IMG/VR virus record: IMGVR_UViG_3300028589_000045
Span: 1 to 24,944 of that record
Length of the DNA: 24,944 nt
Direction: 5' to 3' (one strand)
From: a virus
Taxonomy: Duplodnaviria; Caudoviricetes
In this document: piece by piece, positions 5,731-22,039 of the stretch
How positions within the stretch are numbered: the first letter of the stretch is position 1
Layout: every line of letters starts with the position of its first letter
The notes under the pieces: generated by a model
What the model was told of the DNA's origin: nothing
The model's database searches: none
Seen by the model: the letters and a program-made list of their open reading frames with translations, nothing else
Position numbers and translations under genes: made by a program

Positions 5731-6146
5731 CAGACGATCACCTTCTCGACCCCCGCGCGCCGCGCGATGCGGTCGCCGAGGAAGCGCTCAGACTCGTTCA
5801 TCACCGACTCGAGGAACTTCGCTTCGCCGACCGGGTGGATCGCGTCGAGGTTCTCGTGGAGCGGGACAATATACGTCTCGACCAGCTCGCCGGTCTTCGG
5901 GTTCGTCTCACCCTGCGCGGCGTACGCCAGCGCGGCCACGACGCGGCCGGGCCTGATGTCCGGCCCGAGCACCACGGCGCTAAGTTCCGCGGCATGCGTG
6001 TCCTTCGGTATCCGGCGCTGCGACTCCGGCTTCTCGATCTCGTTCAGCTCGTCGTAGAGCGCCTGACCCACGACTCGTGGGTACTCCTGCGCGAAGCGTA
6101 GCAGGCGGCCCTTCATGTACGAGAGGCCTATGAGTTTAGCCATCAA
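5730..6146 (-). CDS. Neck / tail completion protein (HK97 gp10-like)
   Basis: 138 aa; 'IPKDT..AELS', 'YIVPLHENLDAIHPVGEAKFLE' pattern; synteny. Confidence 0.7.
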   Translation of the reverse strand: MMAKLIGLSYMKGRLLRFAQEYPRVVGQALYDELNEIEKPESQRRIPKDTHAAELSAVVLGPDIRPGRVVAALAYAAQGETNPKTGELVETYIVPLHENLDAIHPVGEAKFLESVMNESERFLGDRIARRAGVEKVIV

Positions 6147-7534
6147 AAAGATCCTCGATGAACTGGATTGGGGTCCGGCAGTTCCTCAGGTTCAGGCGTC
6201 GGGACGGAGCCCTCGCGCAAGACGCGAAGCTTCGGCGCGACGGGCTTCGGCGGGACCTCGAAAGGATCCCGGAGCTGCTTCTCGCCCTTCCAGAGCGGCT
6301 GCGATTTGGTCTTGAAAACCCCCTCCACGACAGCGGCGAACGCGTCACCGATGTTCTTCCAATCGAACCGCGGCTCGGCGGCCCGGTCGAGGCCCTTCTG
6401 CGACCACCACCGACGCGTGATCGGGTCCGAGTACAGCTCCTCGAGCCCAACGACGTAAGCCTCTCGGTCCGGCAATCCGCCGATGACGTTGATCGAATTG
6501 TGCGTGCAGATGTTCCCCGTGCACGGGACGAGGTACGCCGCGCCGCGCGCCCAGTCCCCGAGCGCAGACCAGTTCCCCGCCATCGCGACGCAGCCGCAGG
6601 CCATGGCCTCGAGCGACGGTAAATGAAAACCCTCGCTCTGCGACGTCGACATGTGGACGTCAAACGCCGAGTAGAGCCGCGCGAGCGTCTCCTCTGTCTC
6701 GCCCTTCCTTGCCTCGGGCGAGGAGACGATCACGCGGGACTGTATCTTCAGGTACCGGACAAGCTGCTCGAGGTCGAAGGCCATCTCGCCTGTCGGCGCG
6801 CAGTGGACGAAGAGGTACGCGTCGCGCCTATCGTACTTCTTGATCCACTCCGCGAAGTACATGAGCGTCAGGTCGAGGCGCTTCCGTGGCTGGTTGCGTC
6901 CGACGTATCCGGCGAGGAATGCGTTCTCCGGTATCGGTAGCCCCAGCCAACGCCGCGACTCGGCCTTGTCGTACGGGTGATAAATGTCGCGATCGACCCC
7001 GAGCGGCACGACGGCCGCCGGTCCCTCGTAGCCGCCGAGCTCCGCCTCGAGACGCCCGAACTCGGTCCAGAAGACGGTCAGGGCGAGAGCGTTCATCCCC
7101 AGTTCCTTCATCGTCTTGCCCGACGCTGTGCCGCCGCGGCAGTTCTTCCCGTCCACGGGGACCGAGGCGACGATGGGGATCCCCGTCTCCTTGAGCACCT
7201 CCGTGTAGTACGGGACGTTCCACGGGTCGTTCTGCACGACAACCACGTCCGGCCGGGGCATCGGCCACGCGCCGTCGATCCCGCACGCCTCGGGATTCGT
7301 GAGCCAGAACGGCAGCGCCTGCTCCAGCCTGCCGACGCCCCACATGTCCTGGCCCGGCCAGCAAGGGTAGACGTTGTACGGGTACGGGTGCGGGTCGCCC
7401 AGGTAGTTCAGCCCCAGCACCGAACAATCGAACTTGCCGCGGAGCCTATAGTCGAGTCCCTCCATCGTGTAATGCGTAGCACGCGCGAAACCGCTATCCA
7501 CACACGCGTCGCCGATCCAGAGTAGGCGCTTCAT
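6143..7534 (-). CDS. GT-B fold glycosyltransferase, family 4
   Basis: 463 aa; N-terminal 'LLWIGDACVDSGFAR', 'YVGRNQPRKRLD', and the GT4 signature 'SEGFHLPSLEAMACG'. Confidence 0.92.
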   Translation of the reverse strand: MKRLLWIGDACVDSGFARATHYTMEGLDYRLRGKFDCSVLGLNYLGDPHPYPYNVYPCWPGQDMWGVGRLEQALPFWLTNPEACGIDGAWPMPRPDVVVVQNDPWNVPYYTEVLKETGIPIVASVPVDGKNCRGGTASGKTMKELGMNALALTVFWTEFGRLEAELGGYEGPAAVVPLGVDRDIYHPYDKAESRRWLGLPIPENAFLAGYVGRNQPRKRLDLTLMYFAEWIKKYDRRDAYLFVHCAPTGEMAFDLEQLVRYLKIQSRVIVSSPEARKGETEETLARLYSAFDVHMSTSQSEGFHLPSLEAMACGCVAMAGNWSALGDWARGAAYLVPCTGNICTHNSINVIGGLPDREAYVVGLEELYSDPITRRWWSQKGLDRAAEPRFDWKNIGDAFAAVVEGVFKTKSQPLWKGEKQLRDPFEVPPKPVAPKLRVLREGSVPTPEPEELPDPNPVHRGSF

Positions 7535-9770: not shown

Positions 9771-10871
9771 TTACGTGAGGGTCCCGATGCAGATCCCGCT
9801 GTTGCCGTCGTAGTCCGAGCGGACGCGCGGGATCATGATCGCCATGACCAGGTTGTGGATCGTGAAGCCGTCCAGCGACGTCCACGGGATGACCGTCGGG
9901 GTCTGCCCGACGACCATGTCGATGACGTCCGACGTCATCTGCACGAGCGCGACTTTGGTCGCCGGCAGGAGGTCCGCCACGCGGATCGCCTGAAGATTCT
10001 CGATCTTCAGGAGCCGTTGACGGATCGTCAGGCCCTGCGACGGGCTCGTCGCGTCGTAGTCGTTGTCAAGGGCGTTCCCGACAACAGTCGGCACGTACAA
10101 GCGGTACGGTCCGTACTTCTTGTTGTCCTGGAGCTTCTTGATCATCGCCATGGTCTGCGCGAAGACCGTGGCGCCGACCGGGACCGTCGACCACGCGGCG
10201 GCCGTCAGCGTCTCGGCCTCCGCGTTCGGCGCGTTCAGCAACCCGGGGGCCTGGTAGCCGGCGTCCTGGAGCGGCTGTCCGTCCAGCGTCGTCGCGCCGT
10301 TGATGGCCGCGTCCTCGATGGCCTCGTTCACGGCGCGTGTGCACTGCTTGACGATCGCCGTGTCGAGCGGCGTTCCGACGCGCTGAGACATCTTCAGCGT
10401 CCGGATGTCGATCTCGAACTGGTCGGTCGTCAGGTAGATCGGCAGGCGGTTCGGCGTCACGATGGGCATCTTGTTCTCACCCCTCGCCGACGGTGACATC
10501 GTCCTCTGCGCCGCGCCGATCTTGTTGATGGCGTTCCACTCGAGCTGGGCCACCGAGAGCGGGTCGGTCAGGTTGTACGTCAGGCCCGCCGCCATGATGT
10601 CGGCCGCGAACGTCAGGCGCTGGAGCCCGACTTCGACGACCGCCTGGTCGATGAGCACCTGCGCCTTGTCCTGCAGAGGACCGAGCGCCCTGAAGGCGAA
10701 CTCGTTCTCCACCGCCGCCATCATCTTGAAGCCGGGCCGCCGCATGGCCTCGATCGACCATCCGCCCGCTTCCTGAAGCGCCCGCATCACGACATTGGTG
10801 AGGGGAGACGTCCCCTTCCAATTCTCGTTGTTACCCGCCATGAATCTCATTTCCTTTGGCTGCGTTTCCAT
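9771..10871 (-). CDS. Major capsid protein, HK97 fold, encapsulin/linocin-M18-like
   Basis: 366 aa; 'LPIYLTTDQFEIDIRTL', 'PLDTA', 'PGLLNAPN', 'YGPYRLYVP', 'MIPRVRSD'; AAGGAG RBS; synteny after scaffold and decoration genes. Confidence 0.9.
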   Translation of the reverse strand: METQPKEMRFMAGNNENWKGTSPLTNVVMRALQEAGGWSIEAMRRPGFKMMAAVENEFAFRALGPLQDKAQVLIDQAVVEVGLQRLTFAADIMAAGLTYNLTDPLSVAQLEWNAINKIGAAQRTMSPSARGENKMPIVTPNRLPIYLTTDQFEIDIRTLKMSQRVGTPLDTAIVKQCTRAVNEAIEDAAINGATTLDGQPLQDAGYQAPGLLNAPNAEAETLTAAAWSTVPVGATVFAQTMAMIKKLQDNKKYGPYRLYVPTVVGNALDNDYDATSPSQGLTIRQRLLKIENLQAIRVADLLPATKVALVQMTSDVIDMVVGQTPTVIPWTSLDGFTIHNLVMAIMIPRVRSDYDGNSGICIGTLT

Positions 10872-11375: not shown

Positions 11376-11933
11376 TTACTGGGTTCTCTCTCGGAGGGCC
11401 TTCAGGCCCGACGCGTACGGGTCCGGCGGAACGTAGCTGTTACGATCCGTCGCATTCGGCTCGCGCGGCACGCCGCGTCCGCTGAAGTCAGGAACCTCGA
11501 CGCGAGCGTACGACGCGAGCGTCTTCAGTTCATCCGTCGACTTCTTCTTCAGGTCTTCCTCGCTGATCGCCCCGCAGTCCTTCAACTGCGACACGAGCGA
11601 CGCGCGGATCGTCGCTTCCTGGGCCTTCGCCGCCTCGATGATCGTCTTGTAAGGCGCCGGTGCCCGGGCCAGGAACTCATCTTCCGTCAGTTCCTGCTCC
11701 GACGTCTTGAGGCGCTCTTCGGCGATCTTCAGCCGCGCCGACACGTTGCGGTGGTCCGTCTCGAGCTTGGTTTTGGACGAGACCTCCACCTTGCGCGCCT
11801 CGCTGGCCGCCTGGAACTCGCCGAGCCGCGAGTCCGAGCACGCCTCGAGGATGATCTCATCGCCGTCCTTGAAACCGCTGTACTTGTCGGTCACCAAGGC
11901 AGCGATGACTTCTGCTCTTGTGGTCTTTTCCAT
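11376..11933 (-). CDS. Probable capsid scaffolding protein
   Basis: 185 aa, charged and helical; lies between the protease and decoration genes; AGGAG RBS. Confidence 0.65.
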   Translation of the reverse strand: MEKTTRAEVIAALVTDKYSGFKDGDEIILEACSDSRLGEFQAASEARKVEVSSKTKLETDHRNVSARLKIAEERLKTSEQELTEDEFLARAPAPYKTIIEAAKAQEATIRASLVSQLKDCGAISEEDLKKKSTDELKTLASYARVEVPDFSGRGVPREPNATDRNSYVPPDPYASGLKALRERTQ

Positions 11934-11951: not shown

Positions 11952-13811
11952 TTAGTGTTTCTGACAGCCGCACGTCGGTGCGGCCTTGTCGCCTGCTTGC
12001 TCCAAACTACGTCGCTTCTTCGCTGCCTCGATTGCTCTTTCCTGCTCCTCGGCCTCACCCTTGGTCTCGTGAGTGCCGAGCTTTCGAGTTCCGTCTTTCG
12101 TGTAGAGGTGCCACTTGCCGCCCTCGTGCCGAACCGTCGCCGTTCGAATTTCCGAGGCCGCCTTGCCTTCTGCCGTCGCGTACTTCTGAACGACCTCGAC
12201 CGGCTCTCCGACGAGCGTCACGCTGCCGTCTTTGGCGACGGTGTAAGAAACCGAGTAGAGTTTCTCCTTCAACTGGACGATGACGTAACTGTCGAAGACT
12301 TCGCGGACGTAGGCGTAGTCGGAAGAAACGATCGACGCGCCCCCGTTTCCCGGCCATTTCTTGCCGACCGCCTCGTTGATAGCTCTTTGGCGCTGCTCGA
12401 GGGACTGCTCCGACAACCCGGTCAATCGTGACGCCATCATCTTGTAGTTGTTGCGATCGCACTGCGCGCCCAGCTTCACCGCGTGATCATGGACTCCCTG
12501 GATGATCTCAGCATCCTTCATCGAGTTCCGGGCGCCGAGAAGGACGCGGAGGTCTTCGAAGGCTTCCGCGATGATCAGATCGGATGCTTCAACCACGTCG
12601 CACTCGAACGCGGCAAGGGCCTTCGGTTCAAGCCCTTTCAGGATCTTGTCCCAACGTTTCGGAGCGTTATACTGTGCTCGCTCCTTTTCACGCGTGAGTG
12701 CGAACCGAAAGTCCCTGATGGCTCGTTCCTTTGCCGAGATCTGACGCGCCGTCCGTTCCGGCATCGAGTTGAACGCCCTCGTAGCCTTGTCGAACAGCTT
12801 CCCAGCATCCGGGGGGTTTTCCAACGCGCCCTCGACGATATTTCTGGCGGCCAGGGCCGGACTCTTGTACATATCCTCTTCGGACATCGAGTGCGCTTCT
12901 TTGAGCGAAGAGGAAAACGACGACTTTAAGTCGTCTCTATCGTCTTCTGACGTCTTCCGTACAGTCCTGACAGTATACGTCCCATCCTTGTTGTATTCCA
13001 TCTCGTTTGAGACGTTCTTGCCCTGAGTGGTAGTCTGTCCCTGACCCATCTTTTCATAGTGCTCTCTTGCCTTCTTTTCCGAGGTGAATGTCTTCTCGAT
13101 CGTTTCAGTCTTACCACCACCACCGGACGGCGCACTGCCGCCTATCTCTCCCGGCCTCCCCTCATGCCCGTGATGACCAGACCCTGGCCCTCCAAGCGCC
13201 CGCGGCCCGCCTTCCTCGAGCGCGTAGAGCTGCGCCGCCCTATGCGACCCGCACCCCATCTCGAGCGAGCACGCCCCGCGCCCGCGCGGCAAGAACGCCA
13301 GGTGATCACCCTGCGCCTTACGCCAGGACTTTTTGTACTGACGACCGTTATGCTGCGCGCCGCCGTTCGCCGTCATGACGTGCGCGCCGACGCTGATCTC
13401 GGACGCCTTCCCGGCGCGTATCCGCGCGAGCAGCTCGTGCTCGCCGAGTTGCTCCAGCCTCTCGGGATCGGCCCAGGCCTCCATGCCGAGGCGCGTGCCG
13501 TTCATCGCCGAGTTGAAGACCTGCCCGAACGCCTGAAGCTCCATCACGCGCGGATCGTTTGCCGAAACCGGCCGCCCATTCTTCATGGGGTGTCCAACCA
13601 CCAGCGGTCGGCCGTTCCAGCTGTCGGCGGCCTCGGCCAGCGTCGCGGCCGGCACGAACTCCGGCTCGTCGGCGTTGACGGCGTGGATGATTCCCTCCAT
13701 CAGCGCGACGACGGGGAACACAAGGTAGTCCCTGCCGTTGAGCTTCTCAGTCCGCACCTGTCCGGCCGCGCCGAGGAGATGGAGGTGGCGGTCTTCAAGT
13801 GTTTCGCTCAT
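11952..13811 (-). CDS. DUF2213-type prohead protease with tagged insert and C-terminal accessory domains
   Basis: Start at 13811 (ATGA overlap with the MuF stop). N-terminal domain has 'WNGRPLVVGHP', 'SEISVG', 'DHLAFLPRGRGACSLEMGCG', followed by a repeat tag, a ~170-aa insert and further small domains. The protease role is inferred from family and position. Confidence 0.8.
   Translation of the reverse strand: MSETLEDRHLHLLGAAGQVRTEKLNGRDYLVFPVVALMEGIIHAVNADEPEFVPAATLAEAADSWNGRPLVVGHPMKNGRPVSANDPRVMELQAFGQVFNSAMNGTRLGMEAWADPERLEQLGEHELLARIRAGKASEISVGAHVMTANGGAQHNGRQYKKSWRKAQGDHLAFLPRGRGACSLEMGCGSHRAAQLYALEEGGPRALGGPGSGHHGHEGRPGEIGGSAPSGGGGKTETIEKTFTSEKKAREHYEKMGQGQTTTQGKNVSNEMEYNKDGTYTVRTVRKTSEDDRDDLKSSFSSSLKEAHSMSEEDMYKSPALAARNIVEGALENPPDAGKLFDKATRAFNSMPERTARQISAKERAIRDFRFALTREKERAQYNAPKRWDKILKGLEPKALAAFECDVVEASDLIIAEAFEDLRVLLGARNSMKDAEIIQGVHDHAVKLGAQCDRNNYKMMASRLTGLSEQSLEQRQRAINEAVGKKWPGNGGASIVSSDYAYVREVFDSYVIVQLKEKLYSVSYTVAKDGSVTLVGEPVEVVQKYATAEGKAASEIRTATVRHEGGKWHLYTKDGTRKLGTHETKGEAEEQERAIEAAKKRRSLEQAGDKAAPTCGCQKH
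13128..13196 (-). repeat. Peptide tag copy 9 (protease): LGGPGSGHHGHEGRPGEIGGSAP
   Basis: Direct translation; preceded by RA. Confidence 0.97.
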
Positions 13812-15868
13812 GATTTCAGCTCCTCTATGCACCTGCACCGCGGATGAAGCGGCGGCCCCTCGACGCTGTCGTGATAAAGCTCATCGAGCCCCACTTCCTC
13901 GCCGTCGTACTCGTCGCACTCCGGGCAAGCGTCGGGGAACGTCAACCAGCGGCGCTTCTCATCGCTGCCTAGAAACCCGCTTTCAACCTGTTCGTTCCAA
14001 GCTGCACGTTGACCGGCGTTAGCCGCCGCCATGACCTCGGTCTCGGCGATGGTCTGGGCGCGGGCGTCGTCACCCACGGCGTCCAGGATTTCATCGACGA
14101 GATCCTTCCACGCTTTACCCTTATCGCGTTCTTCAAAAGCATTTGCGATGGCCTCTGCAATTGCATCACGTGTAGTATCCGAAAGCCCTTTAGCTAACTT
14201 CGCCGCGTGCTTCTCCGCCCAGTCCTGAGCGTAAGAGGGATCGAAGAGTTTGGGAAGCTTCGCGCGCTTAGAGACATCGGCGCTCTTGCGGATGACGAGG
14301 TCGTCACCCGAGGCAAGCGTCTCAAGTTCGTCGTCTTTTTCGAATAAAATGGCAATGTACCGCGTGACGTACTCGTCACCGGATTCTAGTTGCTTCAATT
14401 TATCTGGATGAAGCATTTCATGACGGCCGATTCTTCCAACTCGAATGCTCTTGATCCACTCAGGCGGGATGCTCCCCTCGAACCTTTTCGCGCCAGTCAC
14501 GAAGGACAAGTTCTTGTCTCGCTTCAACTGTTCATTTGCGATTGACGCAGGGACTTGAATCTCTATCAAGGCAACGTCTAAGTCTCCGCTTTCAGGAGCT
14601 AGTTTTACTGCAGCCTGTCGCGCCCAGAACATCGCCTCGTTTTCCGAGGTGGCCACGTAGACGTTGCCCTTCTTCGACTGGCGGTAGACGTTGCCGGCCT
14701 TTCCGGAGTCTAACCCATGCTTCTTGATCGACTCGACGGCGGCGAGGGTCGTCCCGTGGAAGACGATCGCGGCAGACCCGCCCACCTCCCCGGGCCTGCC
14801 AGCATGACCAAAGTTCCCAGACCCGGGACCGCCCAGCGTCTTGAGCGTCCCCTTCCCGGCCTCCACGAACAGCTTTGACAAAACCCCCGGCAGCACATCC
14901 TCGAGCGCCGCCTTGACCGCGTCCGGCACCCCACGCATCGCGGCCTGGACGTCGCGGATGCCTTTTGCGCCTTGTAGCCTTTGCCTATCGACGGCCCGCC
15001 GCCCCGCGGCAAACGCATGCTCGACGGCGTTCTTGACGCGCGCGTGGTAACTGTCGGCGATCGCGTGGAGGGGACGCTCGCGGCGGGCCAAGATTCGATC
15101 ATCCTCGTCCGCGAACAGAACCCCGTACAGCGTCTCTGTCTTCTCAAGTGCGCGCCACTTGCCCGATTTTTGCATTCTTATAGAGGTGATCCATTCTGGC
15201 TTAACCTCTCGCAGACGAGTCGAGCGGTTCGGGTCAAGTTCATCCTTTTTGGTCTCGATTCCGACCGGCAGTCTTATCTCGAGGATGACCGGATGTCCTC
15301 TGGTTACTTCGGCAGCCCGCTTCGCGTAAGCAGTGGCCTCGTTTCTGGTAAACGCGACATAGACCGAAGCCTTGCGGCCAGCGATCTCGTAGTTCACGCT
15401 GTCCGACAGCCCGTTGTTCAACGCCCAAGAGTCGTTACCGGGACCAGCTAACGGCTTCAAGCCTTCCTTCTTGATCGCATCTACCGCCGCTGAAGACGTG
15501 CCGTGCCAGACGGTGATCTCCTCACGCAAGGCGTAAGCTGGCTCGTTGGCGCGTGACTCGAGGTCATCTCTCCGAGCCTGTGGACTCTCATCATAGGCCG
15601 CCTTTTCTTTCGGAGAAAGTTGTTGATATTCCTTCGTCTGCCAGTAACGTTTGCCCTCGGCCTTTCCCGGCCAGTCGCGACTGACTGTACCTTCGGCCCA
15701 TCCTCCGGGTGCACTGCCACCTACCTCCCCAGGTCTACCAGCATGTCCGAAATTGCCGGAGCCGGGCCCTCCAAGCCCTCGTGCCTCAAACAACAGCAGG
15801 TCAGACATCTTGTCCGGCGTCCGCTTCGGCCAGTCGGCGTTCTCGATGAGGGCGTCGATGTTAATCAA
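13808..15868 (-). CDS. MuF / SPP1 gp7-like minor head protein carrying two tagged HGT-type ART-fold domains
   Basis: C-terminal MuF signature 'RAQTIAETE...KRRW...CPEC...DGEEV...GPPLHPRCRC'; two tags, each followed by an [WF]HGT...IKK.GL...VYVA...PEWI domain. Confidence 0.88.
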   Translation of the reverse strand: MINIDALIENADWPKRTPDKMSDLLLFEARGLGGPGSGNFGHAGRPGEVGGSAPGGWAEGTVSRDWPGKAEGKRYWQTKEYQQLSPKEKAAYDESPQARRDDLESRANEPAYALREEITVWHGTSSAAVDAIKKEGLKPLAGPGNDSWALNNGLSDSVNYEIAGRKASVYVAFTRNEATAYAKRAAEVTRGHPVILEIRLPVGIETKKDELDPNRSTRLREVKPEWITSIRMQKSGKWRALEKTETLYGVLFADEDDRILARRERPLHAIADSYHARVKNAVEHAFAAGRRAVDRQRLQGAKGIRDVQAAMRGVPDAVKAALEDVLPGVLSKLFVEAGKGTLKTLGGPGSGNFGHAGRPGEVGGSAAIVFHGTTLAAVESIKKHGLDSGKAGNVYRQSKKGNVYVATSENEAMFWARQAAVKLAPESGDLDVALIEIQVPASIANEQLKRDKNLSFVTGAKRFEGSIPPEWIKSIRVGRIGRHEMLHPDKLKQLESGDEYVTRYIAILFEKDDELETLASGDDLVIRKSADVSKRAKLPKLFDPSYAQDWAEKHAAKLAKGLSDTTRDAIAEAIANAFEERDKGKAWKDLVDEILDAVGDDARAQTIAETEVMAAANAGQRAAWNEQVESGFLGSDEKRRWLTFPDACPECDEYDGEEVGLDELYHDSVEGPPLHPRCRCIEELKS
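14768..14836 (-). repeat. Peptide tag copy 8 (inside MuF): LGGPGSGNFGHAGRPGEVGGSAA
   Basis: Direct translation; preceded by KT. Confidence 0.97.
15707..15775 (-). repeat. Peptide tag copy 7 (MuF): LGGPGSGNFGHAGRPGEVGGSAP
   Basis: Direct translation; preceded by RG. Confidence 0.97.
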
Positions 15869-17186
15869 TCAGCCCTCCTCTCGAGACGACGTTCACGGAA
15901 AGCTTCCCGCCGAGCATCAAGACCTCGGCTTCCTTCAGGCAGCCGCGCCCAGTGACGGCGGTGCTCAGTATCTTGCCTACGGGAACCCGCGCCGCGAGGA
16001 CGAAGGACGGTCCCCGCATGTAATGATTGTCGGCGAAGCTCTGCGCGACGGATTGGTCGGTAGTCCACGACGATGCTGGCTGCATCGTCACCTTCTGCGT
16101 CGAGCCTACCTTCAGTCCTGGGTCGCTCGCGAAGCTCTGCCCTCGATAGACGGTCACCTCGCTGATGCCGCGCTCCTTAAACCAGGCCTGGGTATGCTCG
16201 TATTCCGTACGGTTGTAAGCCCGGTCGATGTCATACTCCTGTTGGTTTGTTTGGTAGTAGGCCAGGTCTGTAGAGTGATATTCCATGTGGTCCATGGCAG
16301 CATCGTGAAGCAGGAACTCGTCCCTGATTGCCTGCTGCATCGATATAGCCTCTACATGAGAATCCCCAGACGTCGTCGCCCATCTATCAAGCCTGTCCTG
16401 GACAGCCGCCTCCGCCACATCGCGGTAACTGTTTGTGAAGCCGCTGTACTTCGTCCCAGTTAGCTCAGGGACGCGCGCCGCTAGATCTTTCGACAACGTC
16501 TTGACAACATACTCCTTGACCGTACCACGCTCGGCCGGTGCCGCGTGCGTGGGCCCGCCGTCTCGGAGGGGTGACAGCCCTTCGCCAGTCAACAAACCCT
16601 TCGCCTTGAGAATCTCTAAAGCCTGGTCGGTAATAGCTTTCTCGAGCGCGGCCCGCGTCTCTTCTGAGGGGGCCGAACCCCCGACTTCTCCTGGTCTGCC
16701 GGCATGACCGAAATGCCCAGATCCAGGCCCTCCCAGCACCCTCGGATCGGGCACCACAAGGTTCCACCGCCCGGCGTCGTAATACAACTGCTCTTTCAGC
16801 GTCACGCCCTCGCGCGCGAAGAAACCCTCAACTGCATGGTAATCATCCAGGTCAGGCTTCTCGTCCCACTTGACGCGGCCGTTCGAGTAACGAAAGCGCT
16901 GGCTGGCAAACCGCTTCTCGCCGAACAGTTGGTCGTGGTCGTTAAACTTCTCGGTCGAGTTCAGGACCTGAACGTCTCCCTGCACGCCTATGATGCCGAG
17001 GGCCGGCTTGCTGACGTCGAGCGTGCGATCGAAGAGTCCCGAGGGTGCGGAGCCGCCCACCTCCCCCGGCCTGCCAGCGTGCCCGTGATGACCAGAGCCG
17101 GGGCCGCCGAGGGTCCTGATCTTTCGACGCTGCCGCCTGATGAACACCACCCCGTCGGCCGGCTGGACGTATCGCTCGACGTTCAT
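15861..17186 (-). CDS. Two-module protein: tag + unknown domain, tag + R-S-E ADP-ribosyltransferase-like domain
   Basis: 441 aa; second module has 'VTVYRG', 'ASSWTT', 'KEAEVL'. Confidence 0.8.
   Translation of the reverse strand: MNVERYVQPADGVVFIRRQRRKIRTLGGPGSGHHGHAGRPGEVGGSAPSGLFDRTLDVSKPALGIIGVQGDVQVLNSTEKFNDHDQLFGEKRFASQRFRYSNGRVKWDEKPDLDDYHAVEGFFAREGVTLKEQLYYDAGRWNLVVPDPRVLGGPGSGHFGHAGRPGEVGGSAPSEETRAALEKAITDQALEILKAKGLLTGEGLSPLRDGGPTHAAPAERGTVKEYVVKTLSKDLAARVPELTGTKYSGFTNSYRDVAEAAVQDRLDRWATTSGDSHVEAISMQQAIRDEFLLHDAAMDHMEYHSTDLAYYQTNQQEYDIDRAYNRTEYEHTQAWFKERGISEVTVYRGQSFASDPGLKVGSTQKVTMQPASSWTTDQSVAQSFADNHYMRGPSFVLAARVPVGKILSTAVTGRGCLKEAEVLMLGGKLSVNVVSRGGLID
16668..16736 (-). repeat. 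Peptide tag copy 6: LGGPGSGHFGHAGRPGEVGGSAP
   Basis: Direct translation; preceded by RV. Confidence 0.97.
17043..17111 (-). repeat. Peptide tag copy 5: LGGPGSGHHGHAGRPGEVGGSAP
   Basis: Direct translation; preceded by RT. Confidence 0.97.
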
Positions 17187-18940
17187 CGCTGCCTCAGGTG
17201 AACGAGAGGGAACGTCCGGCCTTGGTGCCGCACTCTGCCGATACCTAGAATCTGATACGTGTCGCCGTGCGGGAGCAACATCTCCATCTCACCCTCGATG
17301 GAGTGCGCGTGCCCGAACGCGATGCCATACTTCGCGTCGATCTTCAAGAGGATGCCATCAAGGTCGTCGCCGCGCGCGAAGCCGCCCGTCTTACTTCCCA
17401 TGAACGCCGCGGCGACCTTCGGGTCGAACGACGTCGACTGGAAGCCGTTCAACGTGACCTGGTCTCCTTTGACGAAGTCCTCAACCTTCACGCCGCGCAG
17501 GCCGCGGTAGACGGTCACCGGCTGCTTGATCTTCGGCGCGTCGGCCATCGCGTTCTCGACCTCGGCCCCCGTCTTCGCGAGGTCCAGAAGCCTGTGGCCC
17601 CCGCGGGGCCGGTCGTCGTCGTCATCTTCGTCATCGTTGTCGTCATTCTCAGAATGATCGGCTAAGTCCAACAAGTCGGGGTTCTCCCGAAGCGCATTGT
17701 TCAAGCGGTCCGGAGCGTGGACATAATCATCCAAAGCCTGACGCATCTTCTCAAGGTCATCGTCCATCGAGGCCCCGTCGTCGAGCTTGTCGAGGAACGC
17801 GTCGTGGGCCAGGATCGCCTTCCACTCGGGCGTGTCGGGGTCGTCCTCGTCGAAGCGCGGGAGGTCCGTCTCGCCGAGGTCCGAGGGTGCGCTGCCGCCC
17901 ACCTCTCCGGGTCTTCCTTCATGGCCGAAGTGACCGCTGCCGGGGCCGCCGAGGGTCTTCAACGACCCATCCAAAATGATGACGACAATCAGGTCGCCCT
18001 CGTCAAGGCCCTCGAGAACCTTGTACTTGAGCTTTTCGCCGCCCGTCTGATACGGAAATTGTCCCTCGCGGAGCTTGTCTATCTCGCGGGCGCTGTAAAT
18101 TCGAACTTCCTTGATGAATTTGGACGGAACTGTTTTTGAGCCCTGCGAGTAGTGATACGTTCCTGGATGATGTTGCTGCCCTGTAACGTTGAAAAACTTT
18201 GCCGCTTCCTTCGACAAAACGACGACGGCAACATCGTCCTTCCCAGTAGACTGCGACGCGTAGTTCAGGGCCAAGTCGAGCTCATGCGCGACGTAGACCC
18301 TGCCGCCGTGCCCCGGGCGGAGGCCCTCTTTCTTGATCTTTTTGGCAACGTCAAGGCGGGTCCCGTGGAACGTCTCGCCGGAAGCGGAGCCGCCTACCTC
18401 TCCTGGTCTTCCGGCATGTCCGTGATGCCCACTCCCGGGGCCGCCGAGAGCCTTCAACCGACTAACAGACTTAATCGGCTTCGCCAACGACAGCGCATCG
18501 GTCTGTATGCCCTTCGAACCATGAAAGACCGGATAAACGCTTCCTGCCGGTGTCTCGACCCTGAACACGACTGGCTGATCGCCCTCGCGTCGCACCTTGG
18601 CGATCTCCAAGGCGTATTCCGGGGTGAGGGCCAAGTTGCCGAATTTCAATCCTTCCGCCTCGATTTTGCCGGCGCGGCTTTCCGTCGTCCCGTGGTAAAG
18701 GACCAAAGACTCGGCGTTCACGTAGTATCGGCCCTGCTTTTCCCAGCGAATGCTACGGTTCTCGACGGTGTTGCTTAACCCTTCCGGCAAGTCGGCACCG
18801 GGCGCACTACCGCCTACTTCCCCGGGTCTGCCAGCGTGACCGTGATGACCAGAGCCGGGCCCACCCAGCAGTCGCAGCCCAACGACAGCGCGCGCCAGCA
18901 GCCTGGAGGCACGTCTCGGCTCAAGCGGCAGCTGGAGCAT
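17183..18940 (-). CDS. Three-module protein: two HGT-type ART-fold domains and a VIP2/Alt-like ADP-ribosyltransferase, each preceded by a tag
   Basis: 585 aa; 'LYHGT...IEAEGL'; 'FHGT...IKKEGLRP...VYVA...VPSKFI'; 'LNNALR...VYRG...FQSTS...EMEMLLP'. Confidence 0.85.
   Translation of the reverse strand: MLQLPLEPRRASRLLARAVVGLRLLGGPGSGHHGHAGRPGEVGGSAPGADLPEGLSNTVENRSIRWEKQGRYYVNAESLVLYHGTTESRAGKIEAEGLKFGNLALTPEYALEIAKVRREGDQPVVFRVETPAGSVYPVFHGSKGIQTDALSLAKPIKSVSRLKALGGPGSGHHGHAGRPGEVGGSASGETFHGTRLDVAKKIKKEGLRPGHGGRVYVAHELDLALNYASQSTGKDDVAVVVLSKEAAKFFNVTGQQHHPGTYHYSQGSKTVPSKFIKEVRIYSAREIDKLREGQFPYQTGGEKLKYKVLEGLDEGDLIVVIILDGSLKTLGGPGSGHFGHEGRPGEVGGSAPSDLGETDLPRFDEDDPDTPEWKAILAHDAFLDKLDDGASMDDDLEKMRQALDDYVHAPDRLNNALRENPDLLDLADHSENDDNDDEDDDDDRPRGGHRLLDLAKTGAEVENAMADAPKIKQPVTVYRGLRGVKVEDFVKGDQVTLNGFQSTSFDPKVAAAFMGSKTGGFARGDDLDGILLKIDAKYGIAFGHAHSIEGEMEMLLPHGDTYQILGIGRVRHQGRTFPLVHLRQR
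17885..17953 (-). repeat. Peptide tag copy 4: LGGPGSGHFGHEGRPGEVGGSAP
   Basis: Direct translation; preceded by KT. Confidence 0.97.
18380..18448 (-). repeat. Peptide tag copy 3: LGGPGSGHHGHAGRPGEVGGSAS
   Basis: Direct translation; preceded by KA. Confidence 0.97.
18800..18868 (-). repeat. Peptide tag copy 2: LGGPGSGHHGHAGRPGEVGGSAP
   Basis: Direct translation; preceded by RL. Confidence 0.97.
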
Positions 18941-19437
18941 CAGACGACCCCCACGATGACGACGTCGTACGAGGCCGAGGCCCCGGCGGCATTCGCTACG
19001 TTGATCAAGTCCGCGCTGCCACCAGTCACCGCGACGCCCGCGGCCGACGGGTCAACGAAGACGAAGATCCCGCCGGGCGTGAGAACGAGCGCGTCGCCAA
19101 CGGCGGAGAGGAATGGTAGCCCGTTTGCTGGACGACTAACCGTCAGGTTCGTCGTGTTGGCCGCTAAGGATTGAATAGCTATCGCCTTGATCTTCGTAAA
19201 CACAAGCGACGTGCCAAAGAGGTTCGTCAAGCTGCCCGAGACGTCCAAGTCCTCGCTCGCGCCCGTCGTCAGCGTGCGGCGCTTCGAGTAGACGTTGTTC
19301 GCCTGGCCGAGCCCCGTGCCGTTCGCGAACAGGGACTCGAGCGTCAAACGGAGCTGGTCCTTCCCGGACGAGAAGTCGCCGGCGTTTATCAGGTCGGTGT
19401 CGACCTTAACGCGTATGGAGCCGGTGAAGGTGGGCAT
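18940..19437 (-). CDS. Beta-rich hypothetical protein, probably virion-associated
   Basis: 165 aa, rich in Thr/Ser/Gly/Ala/Val; coupled to both neighbours; no tag. Confidence 0.75.
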   Translation of the reverse strand: MPTFTGSIRVKVDTDLINAGDFSSGKDQLRLTLESLFANGTGLGQANNVYSKRRTLTTGASEDLDVSGSLTNLFGTSLVFTKIKAIAIQSLAANTTNLTVSRPANGLPFLSAVGDALVLTPGGIFVFVDPSAAGVAVTGGSADLINVANAAGASASYDVVIVGVV

Positions 19438-19438
19438 A

Positions 19439-22039
19439 CTACCGTGACCCCTTCAACTTGTCGGAATGAGCGCGGGCAATCGCCTCGGTCGCCTGCTTGC
19501 GACCAACCTGACTTGCTACGGTGTTTCCTTCGTAGACCGCGTTGAATCCCTCTTGGGACCTCATCTGCTGCGCGCCATGAACAGTCTTGAACCCGGTATA
19601 GGTCACCGGCTCGAGCGTGCCGATAGTCTGCCCACTATGTTGAACCGAGTAGCCACCGTCGTCACGCTTGACCAACTTGGCAGACGCAGCGATGGCCTCT
19701 TTTCGAGTGGGCTCAAGCTCATTCTTCAGTCTTTCTTGCTCGGCAATGAGCGGCTCAATTTCCCTCATCCGCGCCTTAATTTCCTTTGCAGAGTTACCGC
19801 CGCCGCGGCTCGAAATCTCCATGATCTTTCGGTCAATTTCATTAATGCGCTCGGCGGCAGCTGATGGCGCGCTTCCGCCTACTTCTCCAGGTCTTCCTTC
19901 ATGACCAAAATTACCTGAACCGGGTCCACCAAGCATTCTATTGACCCCGATGATCCTGTCGATGACTTCCGTGTTGTTGACCTTGATGGCCTCTTCGAGT
20001 ACCCGCACCAGCTCATCGTCATACGCTTCTGTGTCCGCGCGCATCGCTAAGTCAATCTCGACATCCTCGCCCTCCGCCGGGCTGAAGACTATCGACCCGA
20101 CAGACGCGTTAAGCCCCGAAAACAAATCATCGTTGTGGTCGTAGGCCGTGTACTTTTGCCCAAGCCCCGGCTTAACGTAGGCCAGCGTGGCGTGCGGCAC
20201 GTAGGTCGGGTGCGTGTCGGTGACTTCCAGCCTGTCAGCGAGCCGCTTGTTCAGGTCCTCGAGGTCCGCGCTCTTGACCTCGACATACACGACGTCGTAT
20301 ACCGGCGCACTGAAAAACGCAAGGTTGCCGAGTGCAAGCCGAACTGGACCCGGATGACCACCCAGCGCAGCGCGGACAGCCGCGGCGTCGTTCGTGTGGA
20401 TGCCGTACTTGACCGTAACATGCGGCTGAAGCTCGACCCCGTCGTCAGCTAAGTCCTCGCGTGGGATAGAGAGCGCATACTTTAGCAACTTCTCGCCGAT
20501 GACGCGCGGGAGGTTGACCTGCGTCGACGAAAACTTCGTTCCCTCCGCGGCGGCACGGATCCGCGGGTCGGCTGCCGCGCGCGGGAACCGCTCGTCGCCA
20601 TCTATTTCTTTTTCAGGTGCCGGCGGCGGCGCGGGCGGGACGAGCTCGATCTCATCTTCCTTCAGCGGCTCGAAGTCATACCAATGTGACCGCGTCTCGG
20701 CCGTCGTGAACACCGTCGAGCCCTGCGTCCTGTTGACCGCGGCCCACTTCTGCGCGCCCTGCGCCCGCTCCTCGGACGTCAGGGTCTGGATGGTGGACCA
20801 CTTGACGATGTACGTCTCCGACGGCGGCAGGTACCCGTACTTGATGAGCCGGTCGGCCAGCTGTCGGACGATGTAGGGCCCGGCGTAGGCGTTCTGCCGG
20901 CCGACGATTTGGTCCTTCCAGTTCTCGCGGTCCTGCGACGAGGCCAGCTCGCCCATCTCCGATCCCGTCAGGATGCGCTTCGGGATACGCTTCGCGCCAG
21001 CGATCTGCGTGAGGATCGCGTCGGCGTTCCCGCCGAAGTCCGAAACGTCCGAGCCGAGTGTGTTGATATCCACGCCCCGCGTCCTGAACATCCGCCGCAT
21101 CTGATGCGCGTACTCGTCGGCCTGCGTCTGAAGACTAGCGCGCTCAGAGTCGGACATGTCGCCCATCGACTTGTCGACGTTGAGATGCATGCCCTGGTTC
21201 GCGCGGAGCCAATGAGCCTCAGAGCCGCCGCCGGTAACTTTGTCGAGGTCATCAAGCAGATTCCACACGCGCTCGAGGCACGGCTGCCCATAAACGTCGT
21301 TGTCGAGGCAGCCCTCGGCGATGTGGATGATCCGGCTCCAGTGAACTTCCTTCTGGAAATCCGGATTGTTGATGTCCGTGCGCCGCAAATTGTAGGCGCG
21401 CGGCAGTCCGAAGCGCGGGTTGTGCGGGTCGTCCTCGAACGAGGCGATCGTCGCGTCGCCGTCGAGCGTCGCTATCGCGCCCCTGTTCTGCGTGCCCGGC
21501 CCGCCGCCGCCGGCGAACGGCCAGAGCCCGATGAGCTTCTCGGGCTTACCCCGCGGCAGCTCCTGGTCGAGGGCGCCATCCTGCGAGCCGATGAGCACGA
21601 CGGAGTAAGTGCTAAGCTGCGACAGAATGTCGGCGCGGAGCAGGATGGACGTAATGTTCAGACGGCGGTCGAGGTCGTCCCAGGCCTTCTCGAACGCGGT
21701 GACGTTCTTCGGGTTGTCGTTCTCCTCGAGCCAGACGTCCGAGCGCCAGGTGGCCTTGGGCAGCGCGTCGACGACCGCCCCAGCGATTCCGCCGCGCGCG
21801 TAGCGGTCGTGGTAGTCCTTCGTCGTGAGCTGTCGCTGGTAGCCGAGGACCTCGTACGTGTCGCGCTTCGTCCCGAAGGTGACACCCGCTAGGCGCATGA
21901 ACTGCGCGCGGTCAAGAAGAATGGAAGTCGCCGCGCGGAACTCCTCCGCGGACCTGAAGGACGTGGGCGCCGAAGGCGGCAGCGCGTCCGTCAGGATGAT
22001 GCGCGAGGCGCCGTTGCCGTTCGTCTGTTCAGATGGCAC
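19439..22039 (-). CDS. DUF1073-type portal protein fused to a 2H phosphoesterase (Acb1-like) and a tagged C-terminal domain
   Basis: GTG start with GGAGGAG RBS. Portal motifs 'YARGGIAGAVVD', 'VHWSRIIH', 'IPKRILTGSEMGELASSQD'; Pro-rich linker; HVTV and HATL motifs; tag; ~140-aa tail. Confidence 0.9.
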   Translation of the reverse strand: MPSEQTNGNGASRIILTDALPPSAPTSFRSAEEFRAATSILLDRAQFMRLAGVTFGTKRDTYEVLGYQRQLTTKDYHDRYARGGIAGAVVDALPKATWRSDVWLEENDNPKNVTAFEKAWDDLDRRLNITSILLRADILSQLSTYSVVLIGSQDGALDQELPRGKPEKLIGLWPFAGGGGPGTQNRGAIATLDGDATIASFEDDPHNPRFGLPRAYNLRRTDINNPDFQKEVHWSRIIHIAEGCLDNDVYGQPCLERVWNLLDDLDKVTGGGSEAHWLRANQGMHLNVDKSMGDMSDSERASLQTQADEYAHQMRRMFRTRGVDINTLGSDVSDFGGNADAILTQIAGAKRIPKRILTGSEMGELASSQDRENWKDQIVGRQNAYAGPYIVRQLADRLIKYGYLPPSETYIVKWSTIQTLTSEERAQGAQKWAAVNRTQGSTVFTTAETRSHWYDFEPLKEDEIELVPPAPPPAPEKEIDGDERFPRAAADPRIRAAAEGTKFSSTQVNLPRVIGEKLLKYALSIPREDLADDGVELQPHVTVKYGIHTNDAAAVRAALGGHPGPVRLALGNLAFFSAPVYDVVYVEVKSADLEDLNKRLADRLEVTDTHPTYVPHATLAYVKPGLGQKYTAYDHNDDLFSGLNASVGSIVFSPAEGEDVEIDLAMRADTEAYDDELVRVLEEAIKVNNTEVIDRIIGVNRMLGGPGSGNFGHEGRPGEVGGSAPSAAAERINEIDRKIMEISSRGGGNSAKEIKARMREIEPLIAEQERLKNELEPTRKEAIAASAKLVKRDDGGYSVQHSGQTIGTLEPVTYTGFKTVHGAQQMRSQEGFNAVYEGNTVASQVGRKQATEAIARAHSDKLKGSR
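19865..19933 (-). repeat. Peptide tag copy 1 (portal): LGGPGSGNFGHEGRPGEVGGSAP
   Basis: Direct translation; preceded by RM. Confidence 0.97.

Follow-up and report, generated by a model that had tools for sequence, protein, structure and literature searches.

Five head-region proteins of the window (the whole 24,944-base virus record analysed here) carry nine copies of a 20-residue peptide, hereafter the tag, each directly behind a triplet [RK]-x-L that, judged from sequence, is very probably the cut site of the head protease. The preferred reading is that the tag is a handle that would retain the freed module in the maturing head for exit with the DNA, and we give this reading a probability of roughly 0.5. 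The cut rule is well supported and the function proposed for the peptide is a hypothesis; the tag itself is real and widespread, and it is apparently undescribed.

Pfam and PHROGs place a head-tail module on the minus strand, in the order terminase, portal, a 165-aa protein, two free-standing polyproteins, MuF, a DUF2213-like protease and a probable scaffold, followed by a decoration protein, the capsid protein, adaptors, a lambda-like tail tube and the tape measure. The relevant features are as follows.

19439..22039, minus strand: portal polyprotein, 866 aa (PF06381, E 2e-27; phrog_146)
About 20591-21895, minus strand: portal domain within the portal polyprotein (PF06381)
About 20045-20542, minus strand: 2H phosphoesterase of the portal polyprotein, with no tag and with its two HxT motifs (PF13563, E 2e-8)
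19442-19867, minus strand: tagged module of the portal, no family
17183..18940, minus strand: 585-aa free-standing cargo polyprotein with a 24-aa leader, two HGT (KptA-like) modules and one R-S-E ADP-ribosyltransferase module
15861..17186, minus strand: 441-aa free-standing cargo polyprotein with a 25-aa leader, a no-family module and a DRAT-like R-S-E module
13808..15868, minus strand: MuF polyprotein, 686 aa (PF04233, E 1e-9, over cut-off), with two tagged HGT modules N-terminal to the MuF domain
About 13811-14236, minus strand: MuF domain (aa 570-680), the last domain of the MuF polyprotein
11952..13838, minus strand: predicted prohead protease polyprotein, 628 aa (PF09979, E 1e-6; phrog_760, phrog_12864)
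About 13239-13811, minus strand: divergent DUF2213 domain of the protease polyprotein, His83 and Ser149 in conserved motifs
11376..11933, minus strand: probable scaffold of 185 aa, with one KTL/A motif; in four related phages it forms a single protein with the protease
10680..10691, minus strand: RAL/G at aa 61-64 of the major capsid protein, the predicted maturation site, no tag behind it
9771-10871, minus strand: major capsid protein gene

The DUF2213 domain of the protease polyprotein, whose nearest relative in the protease tree lies on a Terriglobus MAG contig (62% identity), ends in R-A-A (aa 200-202) and is followed by a tagged no-family module and untagged C-terminal modules; at the C-terminus stands a small untagged module (12003-12155, minus strand; phrog_3684) that is N-terminal in related proteins. 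The capsid protein gives a marginal PF04454 match (E 2e-5). Between the portal and the cargo genes, the 165-aa protein (18940-19437, minus strand; phrog_22694) has neither tag nor cut motif. A family-1 glycosyltransferase gene (6143-7534, minus strand) sits among the head-tail adaptor genes, and glycosyltransferases also occur 3' of the capsid gene in several phages of the K group described below. No small immunity gene lies directly downstream of MuF, since the 585-aa, 441-aa, MuF and protease ORFs abut or overlap and leave no room for one.

The nine in-frame copies of the tag, all on the minus strand, are distributed as one in the portal, three in the 585-aa protein, two in the 441-aa protein, two in MuF and one in the protease.

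19871..19939, minus strand: junction 1, portal, RML (predicted P3-P1, 19931-19939) plus the 20-aa tag
18806..18874, minus strand: junction 2, 585-aa protein, RLL plus tag
18386..18454, minus strand: junction 3, 585-aa protein, KAL plus tag
17891..17959, minus strand: junction 4, 585-aa protein, KTL plus tag
17049..17117, minus strand: junction 5, 441-aa protein, RTL plus tag
16674..16742, minus strand: junction 6, 441-aa protein, RVL plus tag
15713..15781, minus strand: junction 7, MuF protein, RGL plus tag
14774..14842, minus strand: junction 8, MuF protein, KTL plus tag
13134..13202, minus strand: junction 9, protease polyprotein, RAL plus tag

A preliminary description of this DNA had counted nine copies in five proteins and none elsewhere, and a looser pattern run over all six frames recovers the same nine and no others, with no match in 300 residue shuffles of those frames. 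Three copies start at aa 26-33 and six are internal. Tag pairs within the window are identical at 18-22 of 22 residues and at 43-53 of 66 bases, and they differ at 9-18 synonymous codons per pair; copies 5 and 8, previously given as matching at 52 of 69 nt, share 52-53, according to the frame chosen for the 23 residues. Fixed tag positions likewise use all synonymous codons in 286 tags from other phages. Read from these codons and the near-constant residues, the nine copies are selected at the protein level, as had been claimed. The triplet [RK]-x-L precedes all nine tags and occurs at 42 of 3,196 positions in the five proteins. What had been treated as a single label from [RK]-x-L to GGSA is better divided: the conserved peptide spans 20 aa, and [RK]-x-L is a separate, genome-specific, predicted protease site.

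The core of the tag, GGxGSG-xxx-HxGRPGxxGGS, is near-constant across unrelated head types, its carriers including siphovirus-like and sheath-bearing phages. In a table of 835 distinct tags, for which 7 gapped matches out of 855 were left out and for which the search favours model-like tags, 11 of the 20 positions are at least 97% fixed (G1, G2, G4, S5, G6, H10, G12, G15, G18, G19 and S20), with His10, Ser5 and Ser20 at about 100%; the other positions include G9 (85%), R13 (92%), P14 (89%) and P3 (55%). Insertions sit between the GGxGSG start and the His core, and searches anchored on one half usually, though not always, find the opposite half intact. AlphaFold, given 121 tag sequences, returned no confident fold (pLDDT 58), and the 585-aa protein modelled without an alignment reached a pLDDT of 36. 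Two familiar motifs were considered for the peptide and dropped. An AT-hook consists of an R-G-R-P core with basic flanks, and the residue before GRP in the tag is A in 49%, E in 14%, S in 11% and K in 8%; tethering to DNA by charge is unlikely because most tags have a net charge of -1 to +2 and Arg13 is replaced in 8%. A collagen-like repeat is a long stretch in which every third residue is Gly without interruption; the tag has only five triplets, and 15% of tags have another residue in place of Gly9.

The residue immediately before GGPGSG, P1 of the predicted site, is Leu in the window and Asp, Lys, Arg, Glu, Asn or His elsewhere. Across 70 multi-tag contigs with 269 tags it is identical in 562 of 641 same-contig tag pairs (0.88), against a shuffled mean of 0.21 and a maximum of 0.30 in 2,000 shuffles, and the next residue upstream agrees in only 0.22 of such pairs. 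Some contigs have mixed P1 residues, namely K/R/P in G030 and A/F/H/N in G049. Protease classes were obtained from Pfam searches (DUF2213 in 19 of 49 records, S78 in 3 of 49 and S77 in 2 of 50), extended by local profiles. After 16 of 140 contigs had been left out as near-duplicates, a class could be assigned in 56 of 124 contigs, no protease being seen in the other 68.

Residue and protease class go together, a co-variation that is directly observed, as are the copies of the tag, their conservation and their position. P1 is D in all 45 tags of phages with a canonical DUF2213 (24 contigs), K in all 33 tags with an S78/HK97-type protease (8 contigs), E in all 8 tags with an S77/T4 gp21-type protease (2 contigs) and L in all 14 tags with a Mu-I-like protease (2 contigs). 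Two unnamed groups, assigned by gene position and sequence inspection without Pfam support, have K in 27 of 27 tags (6 contigs) and R in 29 of 30 (3 contigs), and the window-type DUF2213 is found with L (18 tags), A (6), H (4), N (4) and F (2) in 11 contigs. The S77 match comes from only two Glu-type records, the other Glu-type records being fragments. In the DUF2213 tree, from which one truncated protease was left out, a branch separates each of the D, L/A and H/N classes from the rest, weakly supported in the case of H/N, and P1 class changes three times, which is the minimum. Because P1 class and tree clade coincide, the independent evidence amounts to about eight protease lineages rather than 56 contigs.

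The same residues recur at untagged sites in the proteases and capsid proteins of these phages. At the end of the protease domain stands D in all 24 D-phages, R-x-A in all 7 L/A-phages and N in all 3 H/N-phages. In the capsid protein, the N-terminal slot is filled by RAL or RTL in all 5 L/A-phages (RAL/G in the window, and four close relatives), by VTN or TVN in both N-phages compared and by xxR in three R-phages; the Hardycor1 capsid protein has FRAN where the window has FRAL. Tag sites therefore share P1 with the capsid maturation site and the protease end, and this P1 covaries in relatives, as would be expected of prohead-protease substrates. T4-type proteases cleave after Glu according to the accessible parts of PMC5694885 and PMC9026906, and the HK97 capsid cleavage site is given as K103/S104 in that of PMC10275583; the Glu and Lys classes agree with these measured cuts in T4-like phages and HK97. 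The lineage-specific residue sits immediately before the tag, which places the tag on the downstream side of the predicted cut; the tag would therefore be kept as the N-terminus of the freed module. Two genes annotated as hypothetical, in Hardycor1 (L683:6968-8452) and in Brevundimonas phage MaInes (L682:8953-10659), are homologues of the protease-scaffold and contain repeated x-x-N motifs. Behind each of three HGT modules of the window stand an [RK]-x-L-E motif and, up to the next site, a short spacer that is hydrophobic and strand-like (about 15086-15145, 14300-14383 and 17954-18010, minus strand); these spacers are possibly removed propeptides.

The modules behind the tags are of several kinds. 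The earlier tally of four HGT-type, two R-S-E and three no-family modules holds as a reading of motifs and mostly weak profile matches: the four HGT modules weakly match KptA/PARP-like models of Pfam, NCBIfam or PHROG (best E 8e-7, 0 of 4 over the curated cut-off), one R-S-E module matches PF03496 over its cut-off (E 1e-9) and the other is DRAT-like below it (E 1e-4). The remaining three show no convincing family match (best Pfam E 0.014) and no homologue in a local set of 5,616 proteins, and the ESM Atlas gave no usable match for the tag or for the no-family module of the 441-aa protein. The tag had also been placed at the exact N-terminal border of each domain, which is too precise a description: the distance from the tag to the HGT motif is 4-5 residues in two modules, and 36 and 68 residues in two others. 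Spans from one tag to the next or to the end of the protein are at least 70 aa in 195 of 198 cases and shorter in 3. That the tag precedes exchangeable enzyme modules in head-region proteins proved true of many phages; among the best 120 of 474 tagged proteins, 31 match a Pfam family of ART type, 20 match one for portal, MuF or protease, and 58 have no Pfam entry.

Extra domains also occur untagged, in the window as the portal 2H domain and the C-terminal modules of the protease. A tag directly upstream is missing in all 6 portal 2H homologues, in all 12 related Nudix domains of portals and in the one Tad3 domain detected. The latter, a Thoeris inhibitor domain, lies untagged directly after MuF at aa 1652-1766 of P0132, a polyprotein with eight tags. 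The homologue of the portal 2H in P0013 (E 2e-30) has a match to Acb1 below the cut-off, and the portal 2H may for that reason degrade defence signals.

The proposed mechanism has four steps. Cargo would enter the procapsid fused to the portal, MuF or the protease, or by way of a short leader that is specific to the genome and precedes the first cut. The DUF2213-like protease would then, with high probability, cut after Leu or Ala, as at RAL/G of the capsid protein, and free modules of 100-390 residues. Provided that this cut takes place, the odds slightly favour binding of the exposed peptide to a lineage-invariant partner, for example other tag copies or a conserved inner-head surface. By analogy with T4 Alt, the infected cell may finally be where the freed enzymes act. 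A post-cut role is favoured because the tag lies downstream of the predicted site, because cargo follows nearly every tag and because the tag is kept in genomes that have it only in the portal; the partner should be something general, since portal, shell, protease and tail type vary among the carriers and the tag does not. In its widest form, the proposal is that a portable handle exposed by the protease couples any enzyme to those capsid contents that can be ejected across bacterial and archaeal tailed viruses, whatever their portal, shell, protease or tail, that other short His/Gly peptides are interchangeable with it, and that the preceding residue reads out protease specificity. We put this forward as a tentative whole, with the odds somewhat against all of its parts holding jointly.

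The preliminary description had seen in the tag an address label, either for procapsid loading or for ejection. The ejection branch is the preferred reading and the loading branch is weakened. As a loading address, the tag would bind scaffold, portal or shell before cleavage, or link free cargo to tagged anchors, and the cut would merely release the module. This is unlikely, although the tag is the sole element common to the two free-standing cargo proteins and the three anchor proteins of the window, and tagged free-standing genes occur far from the head module in G016 (39.7 kb, with the head cluster at 59.6-74 kb) and G027 (14 tags across 33.5-72 kb). In G009 and G012, both rated 100% complete, all tags (2 and 1) lie inside the portal ORF, so that no loading address is needed there and yet the tag is kept; it is also unchanged across different families of portal, capsid protein and protease. 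A better candidate for the address is the separate leader of 8-25 residues with which free-standing cargo often opens, similar within a genome (M-x-[FY]-T-[IL]-R-L-K in G027, for example). Leaders before the first tag have a mean BLOSUM sum over P8-P2 of +4.6 within genomes and -5.0 between them, and internal junctions reach -1.3 within genomes, a likeness that gene duplication could also explain. In the window itself the three leaders are unlike one another, so that its free-standing cargo has no common feature other than the tag.

Action after ejection, through a conserved host component, in crossing the envelope, in refolding or as a shield from host proteases, is distinctly improbable. The constancy of the tag from one head type to another suggests that its partner lies outside the head, and modifying enzymes are mostly tagged, with the nucleotide-degrading 2H, Nudix and Tad3 domains observed here untagged; yet the carriers, in Bacillota, Gammaproteobacteria, Acidobacteriota and archaeal MAGs, have few envelope components in common, and several unrelated-looking peptides occupy the same slot. 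Little credence is given to the idea that the tag is an extended prime-side element that improves the substrate for the head protease by docking or timing and has no later role. GGxGSG does fall exactly at P1'-P6' in nearly all copies, with insertions between it and the His core, but the capsid site and the protease's own end lack a tag, the tag is constant while the proteases span at least four Pfam families, and the His core, 10-20 residues downstream, is fixed as strongly as the start. That the tag is an inert linker or a DNA-level handle for cassette exchange is scarcely credible: it is Gly-rich and without a confident fold, and its variable positions are more alike within genomes (0.56-0.79 against 0.23-0.51 expected), as from duplication, but three of its residues are practically invariant and its codons vary freely.

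Retention of a short peptide on cargo inside a phage-like shell has a precedent in encapsulins, whose cargo-loading peptides are short, Gly/Pro-rich, bind the inner face of an HK97-fold shell and stay on the cargo inside it, each serving one shell family and having no protease site. The tag resembles them as a short Gly/Pro-rich peptide that would be retained, next to the marginal PF04454 match of the window's capsid protein, and differs in adjoining a predicted protease site. The T4 capsid-targeting sequence (CTS), as described in the accessible part of PMC9026906, is a short peptide common to unrelated internal proteins (IPI-III and Alt, the latter an injected ADP-ribosyltransferase) at the site of the prohead protease gp21. 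The tag is like it in being a short shared peptide at a prohead-protease site on unrelated proteins; unlike the CTS, which forms the first 10 residues, upstream of the cut, and is removed, the tag lies downstream of the predicted cut and is internal in six of nine copies, so that it is neither confined to the N-terminus nor, as far as the predicted cut holds, removed. Moreover, the tag is common to phages with four or more protease families. In position and size, the leader before the first cut is the closer analogue of the CTS (PMC9026906, accessible part).

Fusions of effectors to MuF, portal and capsid peptidase are already known, and ART, 2H and Nudix domains fused to or encoded beside head proteins have been predicted to be packaged and injected (Iyer 2017, PMC5512222; Iyer 2022, PMC9503650; Jamet 2017, PMC5576092; Zhang 2012, PMC3482391; accessible parts). 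The 585-aa, 441-aa, MuF and portal chains, judged as virion genes by their context, each have at least two unrelated effector domains, as do phage polyvalent proteins. In the accessible polyvalent and MuF literature processing is proposed to be carried out by built-in MPTase, HINT or papain-like peptidases, whereas here head-protease junctions are predicted. As in MuF polymorphic toxins, the MuF domain lies near portal and terminase genes, both upstream of it; in those toxins, however, the toxin is C-terminal to MuF, and in the window the ART-like modules are N-terminal and MuF comes last. In SPN3US and phiKZ, one head protease cuts the capsid protein, the portal, itself and internal proteins at one short motif, as measured by mass spectrometry (PMC10052503, PMC5694885, accessible parts), whereas the cuts in the window are predicted from sequence. 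Those cuts remove propeptides, and the accessible text describes no conserved post-cut peptide and no strings of enzymes split at repeated junctions. The junction is thus a variation on capsid-cargo processing that is already known and does not form a category of its own.

The release and host delivery of effectors fused to portal, MuF or protease are an open point in the polyvalent-protein and MuF literature, for which the junction gives a testable rule: the cutting enzyme, the residue cut after and the N-termini expected in virions. The tag also provides a search handle for packaged cargo of no assigned function, such as the tagged proteins without a Pfam entry, and through the residue before it P1 specificity can be predicted in several protease lineages that have not been studied (D, L/A, H/N and R). 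If it is indeed a general retention or ejection handle, it would represent a new step in phage infection and a protein-delivery tool for bacteria.

Searches of family models gave nothing for the tag in Pfam (E<=1), NCBIfam (E<=0.1) or, with whole proteins, PHROGs, and PDB sequences gave no match at E<=10; tblastn against cultured phages also found none, a negative that carries no weight because of the low-complexity filter. The stretches examined from three cultured relatives with this protease family lack the tag in all three cases. In the literature, GGPGSG led, among the papers listed, to nothing on phage heads by title or abstract start, and searches for phage cargo polyproteins and encapsulin-phage links returned nothing relevant. 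No description of the motif or of the junction rule was found in a search that left most subscription journals outside, and the Iyer supplements could hold the motif; the accessible parts of PMC5512222, PMC9503650, PMC5576092, PMC3482391, PMC9026906, PMC10052503, PMC5694885, PMC10275583 and PMC7911831 name neither.

A strict DNA pattern matched 193 stretches in 28 of the 64 parts of IMG/VR, from which about 280 are estimated overall, and the estimate for a core-only pattern is about 540. Against 1.84 billion representatives, the tag profile found 6,230 proteins at E<=0.001, the weaker of which may include Gly-rich false matches, and 970 at E<=1e-10. Among GTDB genomes 84 stretches match; by hand count, 28 distinct contigs have the full tag within an ORF and the other stretches do not. 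Phage head genes adjoin in 20 of these 28, in keeping with the expectation that the tag is not a generic cellular linker. Confinement to the head region, which had also been expected, is not strict: in G016 and G027 tagged free-standing genes lie up to tens of kb away from the head module. Carrier contigs are assigned to Bacillota, Gammaproteobacteria, Acidobacteriota and archaeal MAGs, following MAG binning as given. On an Acetobacteraceae MAG contig in which no head gene was detected, a 2,102-aa helicase with an intein (L305:1046-7354, plus strand) opens with a leader of 7 aa and has the tag from residue 8.

The slot behind the predicted cut can also be filled by other short peptides, among them WxExxHPRxxxG[RK]F, FDPxQPRxxxGxW and HGxHDQxxH (L009:12835-15864, minus strand; L230, L260, L018, L030 and L300). 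They follow the predicted cut residue of their genome and sometimes precede the same HGT domain. Hybrid tags also exist, such as GGPGSGSWDGPGQPR in P0132.
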